This document shows, piece by piece, positions 2,684 to 57,583 of a stretch of DNA of 64,000 nucleotides. Under the pieces are notes generated by a model. The model was not told the origin of the DNA. It made no database searches and worked only from the letters and a program-made list of their open reading frames with translations. The stretch lies in assembly GCA_000092065.1 (NCBI GenBank), contig CP000585.1. The stretch is one strand, 5' to 3'. The position numbers were made by a program, and so were the translations under genes. Each line of letters begins with the position of its first letter. Positions within the stretch are counted from its first letter, which is position 1. This stretch comes from Ostreococcus lucimarinus (taxonomy: Eukaryota).

Positions 2684-4528
2684 ATGGCGACGCGAGGGAT
2701 GGCGGCGGCGTCGACGACGCGGGTCCTACCGGACGGGCGGCGCGCGCGAGGACGCCGGACGAGGCGGCGCGGACGCGCGGCGCGCGCGGCGGCGGAGGTG
2801 GTGGACGTCGACGAGCGAGGCTTGGCGCGGGCGCTGGAGCGACAAGGGCTGCGCTTGGGCGAACGCGTCGATCAGGGGTCGTTTGCGGTGGTTTATAAGG
2901 CGACGAGCGCGGGGATGCGTGGGGGGGATGAGACGTCTTGGCAGGGGGCGGAGGGGACGCTGCACGCGGTGAAGATTTTGAGCGCGACGGCGTCGACGGT
3001 GAGTTCTCGGCGCGATTTTAAGCGAGAGGCGACTCTGCTGACGCGAGTGAATCACCCGGGGATCGTCAAGGTGCAACACTACGACGAGACGCCTCAACCG
3101 TACATGGTGACAGAGTTTTGCACGAGTGGGAATTTGTGGAACGCGCTTCGCGCCGAGGAAATCAAGGCGACGCGGTTCGCCGGCGCGAGCGGTTCGCCGG
3201 CGCCCGTGCCCGAAGAAATGCCTTTGCTCGACTTTCCCACGCTCATGAAAGATGTGGCGGATGCGCTGACGTATTTACACACCGCCGGGTTCGCCCACCG
3301 CGACATCAAGACGGCAAACATTTTGCTCACCTGGTCGTCGGAGCTGAACCGCTTGCAAGCCAAGCTGTGCGATTTCGGGAGCGCGGCGCCCGTGTCTAAA
3401 ATGCCTCGTCGCCCGAAGCGCGGGGCCGTGGAGAAGGCGTTAGGTTTAGGTAAAGGTTGGCAACCGGTCGGTACGATGCTTTGGATGGCGCCCGAGATGC
3501 TTCGGCCTCCCATCGTCGGCGAAGAGTTGGAGGGATTCGGCGGCGACAAATCAGACATCTACGCGCTCGGCGTCGTCTTGTGGGAATGCTTGGAGTGGCG
3601 CGTACCTTGGATGGGCGACGGCACGCCCACGCGCGCGAGAGTTATAGAGGAAGTCGTCGACAACGGTTCGCGACTACGTGCGGGCGATAGGTCGAGCCAG
3701 GCTGTGACGTCTCTTTTGGACGGCATGTTCAAGACGGTGCCCGCGCAGCGACCGTCTGCGTCGCAAGTCTCCAACTCGCTCTCCGCGATACAAAAGCGTT
3801 GGGACGGAGCCGGTATGTTCGACTACGTGAGTCAAATGGCGATCACGCGAGCTACCGAGGTAGCGAGCTTGCTTGAAAGCACGTCGATCGATAAAGACAC
3901 GCAAAGCGTCATTGAAAAGGAAGCGCGCGCCGTCGCTGGTGGCGGGGGTGAAGACGAGGATGCGGTCGAGGAATCCGCGACGGAGTCTGGGCAAACGATC
4001 GAAGCATCAGATTTGTCCGAAGCTGTGCAGTCGTTCAGGCCGACCGCGAGCGCTGAAGAGCGAGGTGAAGACGAACTCGACGGGACGACGGCGAAACAAC
4101 TCACACGCACCGAGGAGACGAGAATTAGACTCACAGACATCGATCCGGAGACGTGGTTAGGCGAGCCGGGCACGCTCGATTCTGACTTACTGTGCGAAAA
4201 TTTGCTCAACATGATTTTCCCGCACATCCTTGACGCACAATTCACTCCTGAAATGGCGGACGAGATGGCGAAGGGAATCGAAGAGTTACAATCGCTCACT
4301 CAAAAATTCAACGAGTTGAAGCGCAGATCACGCACGGATCCTTTCGCCGCGCTAGCCACAGATTCGAAAGGCCGTGAAGTCAAGAGAATGACGAGCAAAA
4401 TAGAAAGAATCGAAGTTGAAGCGCAAGTTGCGGCGTGGGATAAGACGCGCACAGTCTTGCGCGAGCAACAAAAGAGAGCAGACGAAGAGTATAGTTCGTG
4501 GAGGCGGGCGCTTCGCAAACTCGGGTGA
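2684..4528 (+). CDS. Ser/Thr protein kinase, TKL-like (Raf/MAP3K-like catalytic domain) with a long acidic coiled-coil C-terminal region
   Basis: The ATG is at 2684. The kinase domain contains VVYKA (subdomain II), HRDIKTANILL (catalytic loop), DFG, GTMLWMAPE (activation segment/APE) and DIYALGVVLWE. Confidence 0.8.
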   Translation: MATRGMAAASTTRVLPDGRRARGRRTRRRGRAARAAAEVVDVDERGLARALERQGLRLGERVDQGSFAVVYKATSAGMRGGDETSWQGAEGTLHAVKILSATASTVSSRRDFKREATLLTRVNHPGIVKVQHYDETPQPYMVTEFCTSGNLWNALRAEEIKATRFAGASGSPAPVPEEMPLLDFPTLMKDVADALTYLHTAGFAHRDIKTANILLTWSSELNRLQAKLCDFGSAAPVSKMPRRPKRGAVEKALGLGKGWQPVGTMLWMAPEMLRPPIVGEELEGFGGDKSDIYALGVVLWECLEWRVPWMGDGTPTRARVIEEVVDNGSRLRAGDRSSQAVTSLLDGMFKTVPAQRPSASQVSNSLSAIQKRWDGAGMFDYVSQMAITRATEVASLLESTSIDKDTQSVIEKEARAVAGGGGEDEDAVEESATESGQTIEASDLSEAVQSFRPTASAEERGEDELDGTTAKQLTRTEETRIRLTDIDPETWLGEPGTLDSDLLCENLLNMIFPHILDAQFTPEMADEMAKGIEELQSLTQKFNELKRRSRTDPFAALATDSKGREVKRMTSKIERIEVEAQVAAWDKTRTVLREQQKRADEEYSSWRRALRKLG

Positions 4529-4554: not shown

Positions 4555-4725
4555 GCTTTGAAGTAGCGACGTGCCGTATTTCCTATTAATAGTAGATGGT
4601 GAATATAGCAGCGCTGGCGCTCGTCTTTTAAATTTTTTTTTATTTCGCCGATGGTGTATAAGGCGACGAGCGCGCGACGCGACGCGCGCGATGGCGACGC
4701 GAGGGTATAAGGCGTCGCTACTTCA
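4555..4725. repeat. Inverted-repeat-flanked mosaic segment: 13-nt perfect inverted repeat arms, an AT-rich core, and two fragments copied from the upstream kinase gene
   Basis: The arms are tgaagtagcgacg (about 4558-4570) and cgtcgctacttca (about 4713-4725). The inner sequence has an exact 39-nt copy of kinase 2662-2700 (gagcgcgcgacgcgacgcgcgcgATGgcgacgcgaggg). Immediately upstream of it is a near-copy of kinase 2890-2913 (ggtgtataaggcgacgagcgcg). tataaggcg occurs twice. Confidence 0.7.
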
Positions 4726-6712
4726 GCGAGGTGTGCCCCAACGTGTGGCAGCTTGTTTTGTTCCCGTCTGTGTCGAAGACTAAGGGTAAATACTCCTCGT
4801 TTTCGCACGGGAATCTACTGTTTTTGAAGTGCTCGACCATCGCGTCTTTCCCCTGCACGCGCGCATACGTGACTTCGCAAACTTTTCGCGAATTGAACTC
4901 CTCCCATTTTTGCTTATGGAATTCCTTGTAAAACGCCGCTGTTTGCTTTGCACACTTGAAGTTGACAAAAGCGTAGCCCAAATTGCACTTGTTCTTGAAG
5001 TCGATTGGAAGGTAAAAGAAGTCATATTGTCCCGCGTACGAGCGATTGAGTAGGTCCAACATCATCGCTTGATTGTACTTGTTAGGGATGTTACGAATCA
5101 TGAGCGTCGTCCGGCCGTGTACCTCGGGATGTTCAGACGTGCCCTCATCGTTCGCTTCTTCCATACTAAAGATGAATTCCTCCGGATTCGATCTCGCCCC
5201 TCCATCTATTGCACTATTACCGCTCGACCTTGATCGAGCCATGCTTTCGCTGGTACGCGGCGAACGCATGTATTCCCCGCTCGTCCGCGGCGAGCGACGA
5301 CTGGCGCCATAGCCCCCGACACCTTGCATCATTGCGTAGCCGTACTGCTGTTGCTCCGTAGGCCACCCTTGGTAGCCAAATCCTTGCATCGCGCCCATCG
5401 GCATCCCCGGTCCCATCGAATTTGCGTACGGCCAGTACATATTCGACATCATTTGTGCGCCCATGTACTGCGAGAGCGTCGGCGGCGACTGCGGGGAGAA
5501 GGACTGCGTCTGCATTTGTTGCGGATGTCCACACTGAAAGTCGACGTGAAGTGGTGCGCCTCGGAAACCGACTCGCTGGAGCTCCATAACCGCTGTCTCG
5601 GCGTGTCGAACGTCGAAATACTCCACAAATCGATGATTCTCATGTCCCTTTGGCACCGTCAACCGCTTCAAGTCGCCAAACGTTTCAAGAGTGCTTCGAA
5701 GCTCGGCTTCGCGCTCAACGTCATCACCCGAACCGACATCGTACGCTAAGAAACGCCCTTGGTTTTCCATGCCCGGGATCCATTCGCACGTCGCCGAGTA
5801 CGCCACCATGTGAAACACGTGCGTGGACATTTGCAACGTACGCTTGGCGCTCTCTGCGCATCGCACGTCGTAATATGCGATAAACACTGCGTTCAACGAG
5901 CGTCGCATCTCGGTCGACAGCGCGCGAATTTCTCCGAACGGCGACAAAATTTGCCACAGCACTTGATCACTCATCGTGGGATCGGCCAACACGAGATAGA
6001 GCGTGCGAGACGGGTCGTCATTCGTCCAGACCGCCGGCATCGTCATCGACGTCTCCCGCTGGATCGGCATCGACGCCGCCGATTGTTGCTGCATGCTCAT
6101 CAAGTATTGTTGTTGTTGCTGTGCCGTTGACTCCATCAAGCTCGTCGGCAACGGTGGTGGCGCCATCATCGGCGGCGGCGGCATCGGAGGCACGGGCGGC
6201 GCACCTCCTCGCCACGCGCCCGCGCGCGCGTCCGCATTCGCCGCTTTCTCGCTCGCATCCGCGACCCTCTGCTTACCGTACGCAACACTTTCACTTTCAC
6301 ATCCATCGTCCCCGACGCTCGACGACGACATCCGTTTCGCCAGCTCTCCCTCCTTCGCCGTCGACGCGTCCGGTCTCGCCTCGCGCGCCTCGCGCGCCCC
6401 TCCCGCGCCGCGCGCCTCGCTCACCGCGTCCAACACCTCCATCGTCGACGTCCCCGACACCCGCACCGCGCGTTCAAGACTTTCCCCGAGTCCATCCATC
6501 CCCTGCGAATCGCTCCCACGCGATCGCATCGCGCCTTCAGCCCCAACATCCGCCGTCGAGCGCCCGTCGGCCCCGCGTCGCGCATCCGCGTCGTCGTCAG
6601 CGATTCCCGCCTTCCCGTCGCGCGCGAACGCACTTTCCCCGCCCGCACCGCGCCGATCGCTCGCACAATATTCATTCTCACCCCCGTTCGCATCTTCGCG
6701 CGTCCGCGGCAT
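4718..6712 (-). CDS. Mei2-like RNA-binding protein (three RRMs including the diagnostic C-terminal Mei2 RRM3)
   Basis: [10 protein letters not shown]...[15 protein letters not shown] (RRM1), [16 protein letters not shown] (RRM2) and [21 protein letters not shown]...[23 protein letters not shown]...[11 protein letters not shown] (RRM3) match the Mei2 family. The N-terminal ~230 aa are low-complexity, so the exact start is uncertain. Confidence 0.8.
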
Positions 6713-17340: not shown

Positions 17341-18972
17341 ATGTGCTCCATTCTGGCCATGTATGACCCGAACGCGGCGATGGAGGACGGACGAGAGGAG
17401 CTGATGCGCGAGCTGAGCGCGCGCATGCGAACGCGAGGGCCGGACGGCTCGGGATATTACGGTTCGAAGCGCTATGGATTGGCGCACGAACGCCTGGCGA
17501 TCATGGACCCCGAGGGAGGCAAACAACCGATCGTGTACGAGGACGCGGCGAAGACGTACGCGGTGTGCGCGAACGGTGAAATTTACAACTTTCGTAAACT
17601 GCAAGCCAAGTACGGGTTGACGGCGGCGAAGACGGGAAGTGATTCGGAGGTTTTGTTGCAGCTCTACAAGCATCTCGGGAACGAGTTCGTGAAAGAGCTG
17701 AACGGAATCTTCGGTTTTGTCGTCGTCGGTGACGACGGTGAGCACATGATCGCCGCTCGCGATCACTGTGGAATCAAACCGCTGTACATCGGGTACGGCA
17801 AGAATGGCGTCATGTGGTTCGCGTCCGAGCTTAAAGCCATCTGCGACCAAGACTGCGAACGCATCGAAGAATTCCCGGCGGGTTATTACTGGACTCCGAA
17901 GGAAGGCTTTGTGAAATGGTACAACCCGACCTGGGACTTTGACGACGCCGTCGGCACGAAAGACACGTCGCACGTTCGCGCGATTCTCGAAGAGGCGATT
18001 CTTGATCAAACCATGGCTGATGTTCCGATCGGGCTTCTTTTATCCGGCGGTCTCGACTCTGCGGTCGTATCTACTGTTTTAAAGCCGTTTCTTGAGGCGA
18101 GTGGGCAAGAGTACCTGTCGTTCACCGTCGGTCAAGAGGGTTCGCCCGACGTCACGGCCGCTCGTATGATGTCCGAGTTCTTGGGCACGAAGCATCACGA
18201 GTACCTTTTCACCTCCGAAGAGGCGTGTGCGAACATCGAAAACGTGATTTACCATCTTGAAACCTACGAGCCGGAGCTCATCAGATCCGCCATTCCGAAC
18301 TACTTCCTGGCTAAGCTCACGTCGCAGCACGTCAAGGTGGTCCTCACGGGCGAAGGCTCCGATGAGCTTTTCGCCGGCTACCTCTACTTCCGCGATGCAC
18401 CGAGCTCCAACCACGTGCACAACGAACTCCGTCGCATCTTTGGTCACCTGCACAACGTGAACTGCCAGCGTGCCGATCGCATGACGATGGCTCACAGCTT
18501 GGAAGCGCGCGTGCCTTTCTTGGATCCGCGCGTCATCGACGCCGTGATGGCGGTTGATCCGAAGTATAAAACAATCGAAGGCGAAGAAAAGCCGGAAAAG
18601 CACGCGTTGCGCGCGTTGTTCGATGGTGAGATTCCTGACCCCGTGCTCTGGCGCACCAAGGCGATGCAGTGCGAAGGCGTCGGCCTGAACTGGGTCGAGG
18701 ACCTCCAAAAGTTCTGCGAAGAACAAATATCCGACGAAGATTTCGCCAAGGCGGAGTCGACGTACCCAATCAACCCTCCGCACAGTAAGGAGGAGATGTA
18801 CTATAGACGCATCTTCGAAAAGCACTACAAGGGGATGGATAAGTTTGTTCACGTGTGGGAGGGTGGATGTCGCGCCGGTGGCGCCGCGTGGGAAAACGAT
18901 CAGTACACGCGCGCCGGCGTGAAGAACGTCAAGCAACTCGCGAAGGGTCTCACCGGCGTTAAAGGCGCGTAA
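17341..18972 (+). CDS. asnB: Asparagine synthetase (glutamine-hydrolysing), AsnB-type
   Basis: It starts MCSILAMY (Cys2 is the glutamine amidotransferase nucleophile). It has the PP-loop LLSGGLDSAVVS and conserved C-terminal synthetase blocks (FLDxxVIDxxM, WRTKAMQ). It looks single-exon. Confidence 0.9.
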   Translation: MCSILAMYDPNAAMEDGREELMRELSARMRTRGPDGSGYYGSKRYGLAHERLAIMDPEGGKQPIVYEDAAKTYAVCANGEIYNFRKLQAKYGLTAAKTGSDSEVLLQLYKHLGNEFVKELNGIFGFVVVGDDGEHMIAARDHCGIKPLYIGYGKNGVMWFASELKAICDQDCERIEEFPAGYYWTPKEGFVKWYNPTWDFDDAVGTKDTSHVRAILEEAILDQTMADVPIGLLLSGGLDSAVVSTVLKPFLEASGQEYLSFTVGQEGSPDVTAARMMSEFLGTKHHEYLFTSEEACANIENVIYHLETYEPELIRSAIPNYFLAKLTSQHVKVVLTGEGSDELFAGYLYFRDAPSSNHVHNELRRIFGHLHNVNCQRADRMTMAHSLEARVPFLDPRVIDAVMAVDPKYKTIEGEEKPEKHALRALFDGEIPDPVLWRTKAMQCEGVGLNWVEDLQKFCEEQISDEDFAKAESTYPINPPHSKEEMYYRRIFEKHYKGMDKFVHVWEGGCRAGGAAWENDQYTRAGVKNVKQLAKGLTGVKGA

Positions 18973-33202: not shown

Positions 33203-36200
33203 CTAAACCTCGTGCGAGTCTTGTGGAGGCCGCGGCGCGAACGGAGGAGGCGGGCCTCGGCTTCCTGGCGGCGGGCCTCGGCCTGGTGGTCCTCGGCCTC
33301 TTCCTCGGCCGGGCGGCGGTCCTCGACCTGGATATCCTCTACCAGGCGGAGGGCCTCGTCCGCGTCCACCGCTCATGTTCGGCGCGAGTGCATTTGACAT
33401 CGGTGGTGCGCTTGGTGGCGCCGAAAGTTGAGGCGGCGCGGCTGCCGGAGGCGCCCGTTGCCATTGCGGAACGATGGGCTTGTTCGTCGCTGGATTTCCC
33501 ATCATGACGAACGGTGCATTTGTCGCGGCAGCTTCACTATCAGGAGTATCATTCGCCATCTCTTCCATGGACTGGCCGCCATGATCCGTCAAACTCATCG
33601 ATCGCGGAATACCATTCGTCACGCCAGACTGGTGCGTTCCAAACGGTTCACCCGCGTGCGGCACTTGCGTAGGGAGGTCAGCCATGTGCGGCGGCGGATT
33701 ACTCATCGAAGCGTATGGATTACCGAAGGTAGGCGCGTACTGTGACACACCGTTAGCTCGGGGCGACTCGACCGGGGAGGGGATCCCGGTCGGCCCCGCG
33801 CCCATCGGCGGCGCCATCATGACTGGCGGCGCCAACGCGTTGCCCGTGTTGTAATGCGTCGCGGCATCCGCGTGCTGCAACGGTGGGACATCTCGGCGTC
33901 GCGGCGAGTCGGGTTGGTTTGGGTGTGACAAAGGAGCCGCAGAGCGCGGTGGTGGACCCTTCCATTTGCCTTGTGTTCCCGAATTCTTTGCGCCGCCACC
34001 CAGAAGTACGCTCACGACGCGCATCAAAATAAGCGTCAACACGATGGGCGGCCCGAAAATCGTTGCGTTGACGCCGAAAGTGATCAAATCTTTGTTGGAA
34101 GCGAGAGCGGTACCCATGATGGAGTCTACCTTCACTGCAACCGACGTGAACGTCTCGTCACACAGCTCCATGAACGAAAGCAACTTGTTTCCGTGCTTGG
34201 TTTTCCACGCTTGATGAAGAATGCCTTCCATGACACGAGTCACGAAATTGATGATGAACATGACAAAGGGAGAGACAAACGTCCAAGCTCGACCAAAGCT
34301 CGATCTTATCATGTCGAATCCAGACGGATTACCCCGTGTATCGTAAAACTGAGACGACTTAGACTCTTGCTCGTGTGTAATTTTCGCGTCTTCCTCATTC
34401 CAGTCCAAATCCTGTATCAATCCTGTATCAATCATTTGCTCATCGATGGACGAGTCCGTGGCGGCGGTTTCGTCCATAGAACCTTCGGGAACTGATATTT
34501 CGTCATCCGCGACTTCTTTCGTTTCTTCGACGGTCACTGGCTCTTCGATTTGTGGCTGTTCGCCCAGCTCCTCAGTGACTTGTTCTTCGTCATTTGATGT
34601 ATCGAAGACGCTCTCGTCTGTTGTCGTGTCCATGACGGGCGTATCATCGACCTTTGTATCGACTTCTACTTCGTCCGTGGTAGGATCTTCGACAACTGCT
34701 GTTGACTCGGCGTCTGACGACGTCTGTTCGGTCGACTCGACGTTCATAGCCTTCTCGTGTTGAAGCGAATCTTCTTCACTCGGTGCGGCGGTGCTCGCGC
34801 TTTCTTCACACTTTGGACACGTCTCCGGTTCAGGGCACTCTATAGGTTTCGGACATTTCTTTTCTCGGAGCTGGCGTTCCTCGTCCAACGTCTCTTTGGT
34901 TGCTTCGGTCAACTCTGTCTGCTCACGTAAAAGTCTCTTGGTCTCGCCGTGCTGTCGATCGATTTCGTCGCATCGATCTTTTTGCTCGTCGAGCTTGACT
35001 TCAGCGTCGAACGTGCGTTGACGAAGAGCATCGGCTTGTTTTTGCAGATTACTGCGAAGCTTTGCGCTCTGCGCCAAGCACGTATCCGTGCAATCACATT
35101 CGTTTTCAGTCGAAGCTTCTGTCGCCGCGAGTGCAAGTACTTTCTCGTTGTACTGAGTGAGCAAAGCGTCCAAATCAGCTTGCACTTTCTCATGTTGCTC
35201 CTTCATGGTGCGCAGTTTTGACTGACACTTGCCCAACTCATCGACAGCCTCTTTGCTCGATTCAACCTTCCCTTGAAGAGATTCTACCTGCTTCGTCGCC
35301 GCCGCGAGTTCCTCCGACAACTTCTCGATTTCTTCCTGCGCCAAGAGCAATTCTTCGCTCTGTTTGTCGTAGGCCTCCTTTGTCGTAACGGATCGAACTA
35401 ATTTGTCGTACTCGTCTCGTAAAAGGTCGTAATCTTCGCGCAGAGAGCTCTTGGTCTTTTCGGCTTCCGCGAGACTACGCGACATGTCAGCGGCAGACGC
35501 TACACCTGGAGGACACGCACTCGTATCGCGCAACGACTCGAGCTCTGCCGTGAGCTCATCGATGCGCGCCTGTGCGCTCATGTGCTCTTCCGAAACACCG
35601 CGAGCATCTCCAAGTTCACCCTCGAGCTCGGCCAACCTCGAAACAAGCGCTTGCTCGTCTTCGCCTCTTCGCGAAAAATCCTCTTCGAGCGCGTTAATCT
35701 TCTGTTTGAGTTCTTCGTTCTCGCTGATGATTTGCGCATTACTCGCGATTTGTTTTTCAAGATCGACCATAACGCGCCGATCATCAATCTCCGCCTCGTC
35801 GTGTGCGACCTTGCGTGCCATGAACTCTTCCAACTCGCGCTTCAAATCGTCACCATTTTTTTTCATCGCGCGCATCGCTTTGCTTGTCTTCAACAGCGTC
35901 GCTGAAACAGCCTCAACCGTCTCTCCCGCGGATGCGTCCACACTCACCGGAATCTTGTTCGCGGCCATCCACTCCCGAAGCGCGTGAAGCGACTCGTCCG
36001 CACTCAGTCCGACGGGCACATCAATCTTCTGCGCGGCTTTTTGCTTCGCACGCGGCGGTTCCGACATCACCGGCTCTGGCTCCATCACCGGCTCTGGCTC
36101 CATCACCGGCTCTGGCTCCATCTCTGGTTCGTCCTCAACCGCGGGCTCACGTTCCGGCTCCACATCCTCCAATTCAACCGCACGCTCCATCGCGTGCCCT

Positions 36201-41137: not shown

Positions 41138-42571
41138 ATGCGTCGCGCGACGTCGACCGCGAGCGCGCGGCTGCTGGTTCTGACGTTCTTCGCGATCGCG
41201 TCGAGCGTCGCCGTCGCCGCCGCGGCGTCGTACGAGACGCGCTCGACGCGCGCGCCGCGACGCGCGTCCAGCTCGTCCCAGTCCGCCGCGCCGCGTTTCC
41301 GCGCCTACACGTGGGGAATCGGCGGCGAGCGCGTCGGGCGACCGTCCAACCCCTCGAGCTTGCCTCCCGCGCGCGTTGAATTGGACGAGAGCGCGGGAGA
41401 CGTCGTCGCGATCGCGGCGAGCGGACACACCGCCGTGGTCGTCGAGCGCGGGTGGTTGTACACCGCGGGGCGAAACGCGTCGAGCGGTGGTGGCGGTCGG
41501 GGATCGCCCCCGATCGAAGATAGCGGACAGCTCGGTCGCGGTGGTAGTTCGGGGGCGATGGAGCGCGTGATCGGGGCGCTGAGCGATGAGGTGGTCACGA
41601 GCGTGGCGTGCGGACGATATCACACCGTGGTGTCGACGGAGAGCGGCGCGGTGTATTCGTTCGGGTTGAACGACGCGGGGCAGCTCGGGACGGCTGGAGT
41701 GATGGGTAAATTACCGATAAATGGGGTGACGTGTGATAGCGGTGGGAACTGCGATGGGCTCGAGCGAGCGAGCAAGGTTGAGGCGAAGGAGGGCTCGTCG
41801 TGCTTCGGCGGCTCGTCGTGTAGAATCGGGACGCCGCGTCGCGTGCGGTTTTCGAGCCACACGGTGGAGGTTAGGAGCGTTGCCGCAGGCAGGTACTCGA
41901 GCGCGGCGATAGCGAGCGATGGGACTGTGTACGTGTGGGGATTGAATTCTTGCGGCGATAGCGAAATAGGCCGCGACGAGTTACTCGCCGACGCGAGCGT
42001 CGCGGCGGTTCCGCGAGTAGTCAACGGCATCACCGACGTGACGCAGGTAGATATCGGGTACACGAATATGATTTTTCTGACGAGCTCGGGACGAGTGGTG
42101 ACGTGCGACACCGGATTTACCGGGTATGCGCAAGTGCAAGCGAACGCGGATGTGAGCTTGCGGCAGCACATCACGTTTGCGGACGCGCCATCGACGCAGC
42201 GTGCCTTCGACGTCGCCGCTGGACGCTGTCACTACGTCGTTGCCACGGAAGGTGGCGGCCTGTACACGTGGGGCTGCGACGGTGCCTGGCTAGGCCGCGA
42301 CGGCGATCCACTCAAACCAGCTCAAGTCGGCGGCGACTTGGCGTCTCGCGCCGCCGTCTCAGTCGCCGCGGGCGAATACTTCACCCTCGTCGCCACCGTC
42401 GACGGCGAAGTGTATGGTATGGGTGCCGCCGGTAACGGTCAACTGGGCGTCCAAGCGTCGAACTCCGGGCACAACTCCCCCATCCGCGTGAACGTCGGCG
42501 ACGCCGTGGGCACCCTCGCCGTCGCCGCGGGATACCAACACTCGGTCGCCATCGTTCGGTCCTCCGACTAG
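41138..42571 (+). CDS. RCC1-repeat (regulator of chromosome condensation-like beta-propeller) protein with an N-terminal signal-peptide-like segment
   Basis: It has repeated GRYHTVVSTESGAVYSFGLNDAGQLG-type blades (at least 6: GHTAVVV..., GRYSSAAIA..., GRCHYVVATEGGGLYTWG..., GEYFTLVATVDGEVYGMGAAGNGQLG, GYQHSVAI). The N-terminus is MRRATSTASARLLVLTFFAIASSVAVAAAA. Confidence 0.7.
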   Translation: MRRATSTASARLLVLTFFAIASSVAVAAAASYETRSTRAPRRASSSSQSAAPRFRAYTWGIGGERVGRPSNPSSLPPARVELDESAGDVVAIAASGHTAVVVERGWLYTAGRNASSGGGGRGSPPIEDSGQLGRGGSSGAMERVIGALSDEVVTSVACGRYHTVVSTESGAVYSFGLNDAGQLGTAGVMGKLPINGVTCDSGGNCDGLERASKVEAKEGSSCFGGSSCRIGTPRRVRFSSHTVEVRSVAAGRYSSAAIASDGTVYVWGLNSCGDSEIGRDELLADASVAAVPRVVNGITDVTQVDIGYTNMIFLTSSGRVVTCDTGFTGYAQVQANADVSLRQHITFADAPSTQRAFDVAAGRCHYVVATEGGGLYTWGCDGAWLGRDGDPLKPAQVGGDLASRAAVSVAAGEYFTLVATVDGEVYGMGAAGNGQLGVQASNSGHNSPIRVNVGDAVGTLAVAAGYQHSVAIVRSSD

Positions 42572-55081: not shown

Positions 55082-57583
55082 TCAAACGCTTTCGTCGTAT
55101 TTTGCGACTGTGGGCCCCCCGCTTACTAATGGTTCGCTATCTTCGTCGTTGCTCGTGAATTTCCCTTTCGCGATGGCGACCAAAACTACGCCGAAGGCGA
55201 TCGCAGTGGCGCCAAAGACAGCGTTGAACGCGACATACTTTCCCTCGTCAACCGCGATCAGTTGAACCTCCTCCACGCGACGACCAGGGATCTGGAGCCG
55301 CACGTACGACAAATCCTCACCGAGATCACCGTCGGAGTCATCACCGGTTTGTTCACTTTGCAAAATCCACCCCTCCGTCGGCATCTCCACGAGCACCTCG
55401 TTTTCGCCTTGTGCGATCGAGACGTTCGTCAGCGGCACTTGAGGATTGAACGCACACTCAGCATCGGGAGTGAATGTACACACCGAAAACCCAGTTGGCG
55501 CGCATCGAAGCGCGTAGACACCATCTCCGTGCTTTCCTTCCTTGTGATTCCAGAAATGACCGGGAGCGTCTTCACCGCATCCTTGCGTTACGCTACACGT
55601 GAAAACGCTGTTTTCGACGTCGTGAGCCGATTGACTAGCCGGATTGAGTTGCTTATTGGTCAGAGTCAATCCACCATGATCGTCAGCAATCATGTCAGAG
55701 ACGTTTTGCGACGAATATTTGTCTGAAGTCCCGTACTGAGCTGCAGTGACGGTGTTTGCGTCGCCACACGAGTTAACGATGCCGAGCTCTGGACAGAACT
55801 GTGTACCGTGCGATCGCAAGTTGAGATCATCGCAGTTTCGCGAGCGAGAGTTTCGCACATTGAAACATTGCCCGATTTCGAGGTTCGGCGCGCAAGAACA
55901 AGAGCATGTGCCACTGAAACGTTCCGGGTCATCCTCGGTCCAAGTCGCATCGTGCGTGATGGAGGCTGTTTGTACTTTTGACGCGGCGACTTGATCGTCG
56001 GGAACAGAATTCACGAGTGTTTCCATTTGGTCGTTGTACGCATTTTGATCGGAATCCCCGAGACGCGGTAAGACGACTTTTCTCTCTTTAAGCGGCTCAT
56101 TTTTGTGGTGCAAGCTCGCCCACACATTTTCGTAACTCGTGCCCGATCTAGAGAGCTTCGGGTAAGTCAATCGGTGATTTTGATCGCTCGATGGCTTCGG
56201 ATCGATGGCGTGCGCGATGATCTGCCAGGCGCGTTGTACGACAAACATATCATTACGTGGAAGAACTGTGCGTTCAGATTCTGCAAGATCTGCTTGTTGA
56301 ATAGCTGCACTGACGGCCGGACAAGTCGGCGACGAGCCCCACGTTGTACCGAGGCTGACGACGACTGTTCGCTGTTCCGGAACAGTGATCATCATCGAAC
56401 CCATCTCACCGGCGTTAAACAAGACATCGTAGCTCGGCTCGGCTCCCGGAAGCACCGGACCGTCGTGTACCGGGCAATCAGCGCCCAAACCGCTGACGGA
56501 ATTCGTCGGCGCCGACTCATTGCCAGCTTGCGCTTGTTCTTGATCGTTCATCTTTGATGCGGCGTGCACGTTGTACGTCCATCCCGCGAGACCAAAGTAC
56601 CTTGACGCGTCAGGATAGGACGGTCGCATCATCGCACGAAGAAATTTTTTGTCGACGAGTTGTCTGGAGCCGCCGTCTGGCATTTTCCATCTCCCTTCGT
56701 TGACGATGAGTTGTCCGAAGCGAGCCATATCGCGGCAGCTCGCGAGCTGTCCGCCGACGAATGACATCTCACCTTTCGAGCTACCCGTACCTTGCTCGAA
56801 GAAATCGCCCAGTCCAAGGGGATCAGCGATGCGCTTCTTCGCGAACGCCGTCGGGCGCTGTCCCGTGGCGCCTCTAAGGACGCCGTTCAAATATTTCAAA
56901 GGCGACTTTTGGACGTCGTTATACGCCGCGTCGTTACGGAACTCCTCTCCTGGTACGTGGCTTCCATCCGAGCTCACCTGCGCGAGCAACTCGCGCACCG
57001 TAAGCGACGCCCAGTACTCACTATTCCACTCCGGCGGCGTATCACCTCCGAATTGTTGCGCGCGGTCCAGCAACTCCTTCACCTTGTCGTCCAGCGTCAG
57101 GTCCTGTCTCAGAATCGCCGCGCCGATCGCGAGTGCCGTCGCCACTTTCCCGACGTATCCCACGTTGAACACGCTGTTCAGCGTCGCGCCGTTGTAATAC
57201 TCTTCGTGCACCACGACGCCGTCCTTCACCACCACCACGCAGTCGCGCGCCGGCAAGTCAAGCTTCAACTGCGTCGACCCCTCGATCAGCGCGTGACCGC
57301 GCAGACCGTGATCTTCGGGAAAGCTAGAGTACCACGACCCATTCGCCGGTCCGAGGACGTCGCGCGAGCCGAGCGCGAGGAGCTCGTCGCTGTTTTCGTA
57401 CGCGTACCACGCGCCGAGCGCCAACACCACGGCGATCGCGACGGCGACGACGCGGTGGCCGTGCGCGGACCAGAACGAGCGCCGACCGTGCGTGGCCCAC
57501 GCTCGAGTGTCTTCGTTCATCGCGAGCGTTCGCTCGCGCGACGGCGCGCGCGCGCGCGAGGATGTGTAGAGCTGATTCATCAT
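55082..57583 (-). CDS. Beta-lactamase/transpeptidase-fold (class C / LACTB-like) membrane protein with a Cys-rich C-terminal domain; the catalytic Ser is apparently substituted by Tyr
   Basis: The N-terminal anchor is VVAVAIAVVLALGAWYAY. SVFNVGYVGKVATALAIGAAILRQDLTLDDKV aligns to the class C motif FELGSVSKTFTGVLGG (as recalled) with Y in place of the SxxK serine. Downstream are ADPLGLGDFF, GGQLASCRDMARFGQLIVNEGRW, a Cys-rich module and a second TM (AIAFGVVLVAIA). Confidence 0.6.
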   Translation of the reverse strand: MMNQLYTSSRARAPSRERTLAMNEDTRAWATHGRRSFWSAHGHRVVAVAIAVVLALGAWYAYENSDELLALGSRDVLGPANGSWYSSFPEDHGLRGHALIEGSTQLKLDLPARDCVVVVKDGVVVHEEYYNGATLNSVFNVGYVGKVATALAIGAAILRQDLTLDDKVKELLDRAQQFGGDTPPEWNSEYWASLTVRELLAQVSSDGSHVPGEEFRNDAAYNDVQKSPLKYLNGVLRGATGQRPTAFAKKRIADPLGLGDFFEQGTGSSKGEMSFVGGQLASCRDMARFGQLIVNEGRWKMPDGGSRQLVDKKFLRAMMRPSYPDASRYFGLAGWTYNVHAASKMNDQEQAQAGNESAPTNSVSGLGADCPVHDGPVLPGAEPSYDVLFNAGEMGSMMITVPEQRTVVVSLGTTWGSSPTCPAVSAAIQQADLAESERTVLPRNDMFVVQRAWQIIAHAIDPKPSSDQNHRLTYPKLSRSGTSYENVWASLHHKNEPLKERKVVLPRLGDSDQNAYNDQMETLVNSVPDDQVAASKVQTASITHDATWTEDDPERFSGTCSCSCAPNLEIGQCFNVRNSRSRNCDDLNLRSHGTQFCPELGIVNSCGDANTVTAAQYGTSDKYSSQNVSDMIADDHGGLTLTNKQLNPASQSAHDVENSVFTCSVTQGCGEDAPGHFWNHKEGKHGDGVYALRCAPTGFSVCTFTPDAECAFNPQVPLTNVSIAQGENEVLVEMPTEGWILQSEQTGDDSDGDLGEDLSYVRLQIPGRRVEEVQLIAVDEGKYVAFNAVFGATAIAFGVVLVAIAKGKFTSNDEDSEPLVSGGPTVAKYDESV

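Follow-up and report, generated by a model that had tools for sequence, protein, structure and literature searches.

A segregating 65-nt insertion between convergent genes of Ostreococcus lucimarinus as a probable scar of serial template switching

We found that a 65-nucleotide (nt) segment of Ostreococcus lucimarinus DNA, at positions 4656–4720 of the 64,000-nt stretch analysed here (contig CP000585.1 of assembly GCA_000092065.1; hereafter the window), stands in place of five ancestral bases, TAAGG, that are retained in other haplotypes of the species. Judged by sequence comparison, the segment is a derived insertion, and all of its bases (65 of 65) are accounted for by four tracts with templates within 2 kb upstream, three copied directly and one inverted. 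We consider it likely, with a probability of roughly 85%, that the 65 nt are the scar of serial, microhomology-primed template switching at a DNA break or a collapsed replication fork. The initial annotation of this locus, made from the letters alone, had proposed a templated insertion during break repair, with microhomology at its junctions and donors in the same locus; the empty-site allele and the placement of every inserted base on four local templates bear that proposal out. Coordinates below refer to the plus strand unless stated otherwise.

The insertion and its alleles in wild populations

The window is nuclear DNA of O. lucimarinus, as its asparagine synthetase open reading frame (ORF) at 17341–18972 is identical to XP_001417722.1 / ABO96015.1 of O. 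lucimarinus CCE9901. The insertion lies in the 189-nt spacer between two convergent, intron-less ORFs. On the plus strand, positions 2684–4528 encode a Ser/Thr protein kinase of 614 amino acids (Pfam PF00069/PF07714 on identical environmental proteins), the ATG being placed at 2684 by the ORF reading of the window; this is the donor gene. On the minus strand, positions 4718–6712 encode a Mei2-like RNA-binding protein of 664 amino acids (PF04059, RRM_2). The insertion event removed the terminal proline codon and the TAA stop codon of the Mei2-like gene and changed its C terminus from the ancestral ...SLKP-TAA (665 amino acids) to ...SLK-TAG (664 amino acids). The new TAG, at 4718–4720 on the minus strand, is supplied by the inverted tract (tract D, below) and lies inside the right arm of an inverted repeat.

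Our sample consisted of 29 environmental contigs of O. lucimarinus, all of them, as metagenome contigs, consensus sequences and possibly chimeric. They were obtained by locating the exact kinase protein and close variants of it on marine metagenome contigs, with one further contig, L093, from a metagenome DNA pattern scan in which the left flank had to be followed by any base other than G. At 16 nt, the pattern was too short, giving at least 120 matches, and among those listed only L093 came from this locus. In 17 of the 29 contigs the segment was identical to that of the window (the filled allele). Seven contigs (L093 and L137–142) carried a short, empty-site allele, GATGGT-TAAGG-CTTCAG, in which the 65 nt of 4656–4720 are replaced by the 5 nt TAAGG. 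The other five were scaffolds with runs of Ns bounded exactly by 4655 and 4721, the points at which the two alleles diverge. These gapped scaffolds (L001, L005, L007, L009 and L154) came from different pipelines and contain runs of 20, 22 or 100 Ns. The recurrent assembly gap is caused by the natural polymorphism, by a 39-nt repeat described below, or by both; we infer that the Ns stand for unresolved allele bubbles, to which the repeat may contribute by confusing assemblers.

Two single-nucleotide polymorphisms (SNPs) matter for what follows. At position 2893 the environmental contigs have G (29 of 29) and the window has T, a private synonymous change of this strain (GTG to GTT, both valine). 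At position 4572 a T/C polymorphism segregates, with C ancestral and T found only on insertion-bearing or gapped contigs.

We compared haplotypes over 4.7 kb containing 27 SNPs. In the most divergent haplotype clade (L137–142), each of the six contigs carried the short allele, and the short L093 was one SNP away from a filled haplotype (L006/L007). Two sister species retain the convergent pair of kinase and Mei2-like genes, with kinase proteins 69% and 66% identical to that of the window. Between the two stop codons, their spacers span 148 and 123 nt at 40–41% GC, compared with 126 nt for the short allele and 189 nt for the filled allele here, and the GC-rich block is absent from the spacers of both; these outgroup spacers were not alignable base by base, and length and composition are what was compared. 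The empty-site haplotypes contain both donors, and the kinase motif encoded by donor A, GSFAVVYKA/RA, is conserved in the sister species. The polarity is based on these three lines (haplotype distribution, spacer length and composition, and donor logic): because the divergent clade is short, the sister-species spacers are short and AT-rich, the donors exist in empty-site haplotypes and the donor A motif is conserved, the insertion is the derived state. The comparison with related strains and orthologous loci that had been suggested for this segment thus uncovered both an empty-site allele and sister species that lack the GC-rich block.

Several further observations concern the same region. A second, independent indel of about 30 nt is present on another haplotype, in the spacer of L139–L142 at the equivalent of window positions ~4598–4602, and consists of imperfect local duplications of GTATTTCGTATTAATAGTAGAT and TAATAG; this suggests that the spacer repeatedly gains duplication or template-switch indels. 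In L005 and L009 the kinase leader (2660–2683) is 14 nt shorter (CGAGCGCGCG-ATGG...) and the full 39-nt donor is missing, which could reflect either a slippage polymorphism in low-complexity sequence or an assembly collapse. Just upstream of the kinase start, positions 2612–2657 form a (CGATT)n(CGAAA)n pentanucleotide microsatellite, the copy number of which varies among environmental haplotypes. One Logan contig, L010, ends at 4676 and was considered as an mRNA 3' end. We rejected this, as the contig stops at the start of the first 31-mer that lies wholly within the 39-nt repeat; its end is read as a k-mer assembly break, on the assumption of a 31-mer Logan assembly, and gives no evidence on transcript ends.

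The window itself carries several private SNPs, and its exact Mei2-like (4718–6712) and peptidase (55082–57583) proteins were found only in Logan assemblies of a few runs (for example, SRR1179203) and not in ocean metagenomes. On both grounds, the source of the window is probably a strain in culture, slightly different from the haplotypes common in the wild. Elsewhere in the window, an RCC1-like ORF (41138–42571) has a near-identical protein deposited as 'hypothetical protein [bacterium]' (MDA9766586.1; contig set up to 563 kb), and it seems that here a bacterial MAG was binned from chromosomal contigs of Ostreococcus.

Templates of the inserted bases

Among the non-tandem exact repeats of the 64 kb, the longest is a 39-mer at 4667–4705 that is identical to 2660–2698, spans the kinase ATG and has no other full-length match in the window. 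That an exact 39-nt copy of the kinase start region is present had been noticed in the initial annotation, and this part stands; the original had been placed at 2662–2700 and lies at 2660–2698. The remaining exact repeats of at least 23 nt in the 64 kb were all of tandem or microsatellite type. Only one exact repeat in the window exceeds the 39-mer in length: a tandem repeat with an 18-nt period (CATCACCGGCTCTGGCTC) at 36065–36122, inside a long minus-strand ORF. An exact 18-nt copy links 4657–4674 to 2894–2911 and, when extended to 4653–4674 and 2890–2911, matches at 21 of 22 positions, in keeping with the near-copy of an internal kinase segment reported earlier. The lone mismatch is the T at 2893 and, since every environmental contig has G there, it is a private change of this strain. 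The motif TATAAGGCG occurs three times in the window (at 2894, 4657 and 4706), which agrees with the repetition of tataaggcg that had been pointed out.

A perfect 13-nt inverted repeat is likewise present as claimed, at 4559–4571 and 4713–4725. By itself it is unremarkable, because the GC-rich window contains 119 such inverted-repeat pairs (12-nt seeds, within 250 nt). It had been described as flanking the mosaic; the left arm, however, is already there in the empty allele, and the right arm is one of the templated tracts. The composition given for the region also needs adjustment: the window is 62.5% GC, not about 67%, and the supposed AT-rich core of ~140 nt between the arms, although 50% GC overall, is made up of ~84 nt of ordinary spacer (45% GC) and a 68%-GC insert.

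We tiled the derived allele against a reconstructed ancestor with G at 2893 and C at 4572. The left flank extends to 4655, and its last four bases, TGGT (4652–4655), are shared with donor A. Tract A (4652–4674; 23 nt including microhomologies) is copied from 2889–2911, kinase codons for (F)AVVYKATSA, and matches at 23 of 23 positions when 2893 is G. Tract B (4667–4705; 39 nt) is copied from 2660–2698, which comprises the kinase leader, the start codon and the first five codons, and it overlaps tract A by an 8-nt microhomology, CGAGCGCG; its donor was found in all seven short-allele contigs and therefore predates the copy. Tract C (4705–4714; 10 nt, GTATAAGGCG) comes from 2893–2902, within the donor of tract A, or from nascent tract A, and has a single G in common with tract B. 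Tract D (4712–4725; 14 nt), the right arm of the inverted repeat, is the reverse complement of 4559–4572, a piece of spacer in the kinase 3' flank that is unchanged in the short alleles and provides 14 nt with the ancestral C; it shares GCG (3 nt) with tract C and CTTCA (5 nt) with the right flank, which begins at 4721. The junction microhomologies are thus 4, 8, 1, 3 and 5 nt, and 5 nt (TAAGG) were lost at the site. The copies match the population-consensus donor, with G at 2893, exactly, and, with C as the ancestral base at 4572, the match of tract D extends over its full 14 nt. This tract's template lies ~85–95 nt upstream of the ancestral break site and 141–153 nt from its own copy in the derived allele, and those of tracts A–C lie 1.75–2.0 kb away.

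As a control, we tiled 1,000 real 65-mers from the window with the rest of the window, together with 500 GC-rich 65-mers. None of the 1,000 could be tiled with four or fewer tracts; they needed a median of eight, and no match exceeded 28 nt. The 500 GC-rich 65-mers gave the same outcome. Because the 39-mer is the longest dispersed repeat and these controls could not be tiled in this way, a chance origin of the repeats is excluded. These results also answer the question, raised in the initial annotation, of whether the 39-mer and the 22-mer are merely common low-complexity sequences: the full 39-nt match is unique in the 64 kb, and the controls leave no room for chance.

Proposed origin and alternative readings

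The following order of steps would produce the derived allele. In the ancestor, a DNA break, or the stalling or collapse of a replication fork, would have occurred at the Mei2-like stop codon, where ...GCCGATGGT is followed by TAAGG and then by CTTCAGCG..., and TAAGG would have been lost. A free 3' end terminating in ...TGGT would then have paired with kinase positions 2889–2892 and been extended to 2911. Through the 8-nt identity CGAGCGCG, it would have switched to kinase positions 2660–2667 and copied across the start codon to 2698. A further switch on 1 nt of homology would have allowed TATAAGGCG to be copied again, and a last one, through GCG, would have moved synthesis to the opposite strand ~150 nt upstream, from 4572 back to 4559, in a snap-back or fold-back that yields an inverted copy. 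Finally, CTTCA would have re-annealed to the far side of the break. The inverted copy would in the same stroke generate the 13/14-bp inverted repeat and, by chance, supply an in-frame TAG, at the cost of only the last residue of the Mei2-like protein; the loss of a single residue may be the reason that the allele could spread. The indel, its polarity, the exact tiling and the microhomologies are established; a single event with this order and direction of synthesis is our inference, and the pathway could be either polymerase-theta-type end joining or MMBIR/FoSTeS-type replicative switching. Genes for DNA polymerase theta (OUS43494.1), Ku70/80 and ligase IV have been reported in the related O. 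tauri (PMC8002553).

An unlikely alternative is that the kinase's own nascent or mature transcript was reverse-transcribed at the break, for example by polymerase theta acting as a reverse transcriptase and jumping along a single RNA. Tracts A, B and C, all in the sense orientation, and the break site fall in the same orientation within one plausible kinase transcription unit (2660 to ~4700), in which position 2660 is presumed to be transcribed, and the template of tract D is also in the kinase 3' flank. However, the tiling suggests that, whichever end was extended, one tract would need a template of opposite polarity. Because templates of both polarities are needed, the kinase mRNA alone cannot template all four tracts; moreover, between the donors there is no intron or poly(A) signature that would mark an RNA origin. 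Were this reading true, the locus would offer a natural, population-segregating case of transcript-templated break repair in a free-living eukaryote, in a zone of convergent transcription. Onozawa et al. 2014 reportedly described templated sequence insertion polymorphisms from RNA intermediates, in which transcribed sequence is copied during break repair and segregates. Their inserts are said to be typically longer and from distant loci, possibly with RNA hallmarks, unlike the present insertion, which has local donors and is without such hallmarks.

The same sequence could, improbably in our view, have been built in two or more successive events, the first a kinase-derived insertion that re-annealed at TAAGGC and the second a later 8-nt inverted insertion, GTCGCTAC. 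Ancestral TAAGGC is identical to kinase positions 2896–2901, and a first event could have ended there with TAAGG and the adjoining CTTCAG intact. The intermediate would carry the junction ...GAGGGTATAAGGCTTCAG..., but no intermediate allele was found in the 24 resolved environmental contigs (17 filled and 7 short), and a single rare, complex event is more parsimonious than two within the same few bases.

A hairpin that acts in the 3' untranslated regions of the kinase and Mei2-like genes alike, for instance in the formation of 3' ends or in stability, seems very improbable as an account of the segment. This structured element had been offered as an alternative from the start, and in the folding run the derived allele, which is common in the wild, does fold with the 13-bp stem closing the structure (z = -2.4 relative to shuffled sequences). 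This z value is weak, however, and the window has many inverted repeats of such size. In the ancestral allele the stem is missing and folding is no better than for shuffled sequences (z = -0.02); the sister species lack the hairpin, and fold-back copying accounts for the stem as a side effect. On our preferred reading, the 65 nt are a scar without demonstrated function.

We give still less credence to the reading in which the long allele is ancestral and the short one a deletion, or in which the matches arose by chance in low-complexity GC-rich DNA. The core of the 39-mer (CGCGACGCG...) and the centre of tract B (CGCGACGCGACGCGCGCG) are indeed common low-complexity motifs in the genome, but the 65-mer controls and the repeat census speak against chance. 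A deletion fails as an explanation because it would leave unexplained why the bases found only in the long allele reproduce four nearby sequences exactly; going from the long to the short allele would also need two separate deletions, and both the divergent clade and the sister-species spacer lengths favour the short allele as ancestral.

Finally, a miniature transposable element (a MITE or other DNA transposon with terminal inverted repeats and a target-site duplication), superficially suggested by the inverted repeat at both ends and the direct repeat TATAAGGCG, has next to no probability: the left arm, being present in the empty site ~85 nt from the insertion point, is not part of the inserted DNA, which already refutes it, the empty site is TAAGG and not TATAAGGCG, the extra bases (GTA and CGTCGCTA) do not fit a clean duplication, and the content is the neighbouring gene's own sequence. 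No second copy of the segment was found in the 64 kb, a junction-specific scan gave no match to the insertion junction in viral contigs, and the spacer had no match in a collection of bacterial and archaeal genomes, as expected for a eukaryote.

Comparison with known templated insertions

Read as a scar of serial template switching, the insertion is an unusually legible multi-step example: both alleles segregate in the ocean, the donors are intact and the junctions can be read. It would mean that one event both created a new inverted repeat and replaced the stop codon of a gene, that hairpins and apparent 'elements' can arise in one step, and that error-prone repair or replication of this class shapes the very short spacers of a picoalga whose genome is among the most compact known in eukaryotes. 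The indel can also be used as a strain marker for O. lucimarinus in metagenomes, where it accounts for a recurrent scaffold gap.

The initial annotation knew of no description of such a structure. Templated insertions and template-switch indels, natural polymorphisms included, are in fact well documented (PMC4490562, PMC4032859, PMC8421209 and PMC7954356), among them natural polymorphisms in C. elegans (PMC4490562, PMC4032859). For Ostreococcus, our full-text literature searches gave no report of templated-insertion or template-switch indels. Multi-tract templated inserts with microhomology are a documented signature of TMEJ and of MMBIR (PMC4490562; PMC8421209; PMC4912351).

Synthesis-dependent, microhomology-mediated joining by polymerase theta, snap-back copying included, has been described (PMC2943611, PMC4490562 and PMC4912351). 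Our insertion resembles the products of TMEJ in that the insert is identical to nearby sequence, every junction has microhomology, the deletion at the break is small (5 nt), one tract is inverted from the same side of the break, as in snap-back synthesis, and several rounds of priming and dissociation are implied. It differs in being long and complex for TMEJ, with 65 nt in four tracts, and in the position of its templates: TMEJ templates are described as being in close proximity to the break (PMC4490562), whereas here they lie ~85–95 nt (tract D) and 1.75–2.0 kb (tracts A–C) away.

The products of MMBIR/FoSTeS (MMB-TIs) share with our insertion the serial microhomology switches, the use of direct and inverted templates in cis within kilobases, a length of tens of bases and a return to the original locus (PMC8421209). 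In the MMB-TI signature defined in yeast with MMBSearch, an inverted template lies no more than 100 bp from the insertion (PMC8421209), and only tract D comes near it, with a template ~150 nt from the copy and ~85–95 nt from the break; in addition, there is no associated copy-number change here. Because three of the four tracts were copied from 1.75–2.0 kb away, neither TMEJ nor yeast-type MMBIR fits perfectly.

Two further systems offer partial parallels. Short-range template-switch mutations in primates are also single events in which copying of the nearby opposite strand gives rise to clustered change and to new hairpins or inverted repeats (PMC7954356), but they usually replace sequence in place over tens of bases, whereas the tracts here are mostly direct copies from 2 kb away. 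Filler DNA at break and T-DNA junctions in plants provides a precedent in the green lineage (PMC8395108); it has been described at induced breaks and transgene junctions, whereas the present case arose spontaneously and segregates as a germline polymorphism in a wild, single-celled alga. Set beside these systems, the insertion is a new and very clean natural instance of a known mutational process, and neither a new mechanism nor a new kind of element.
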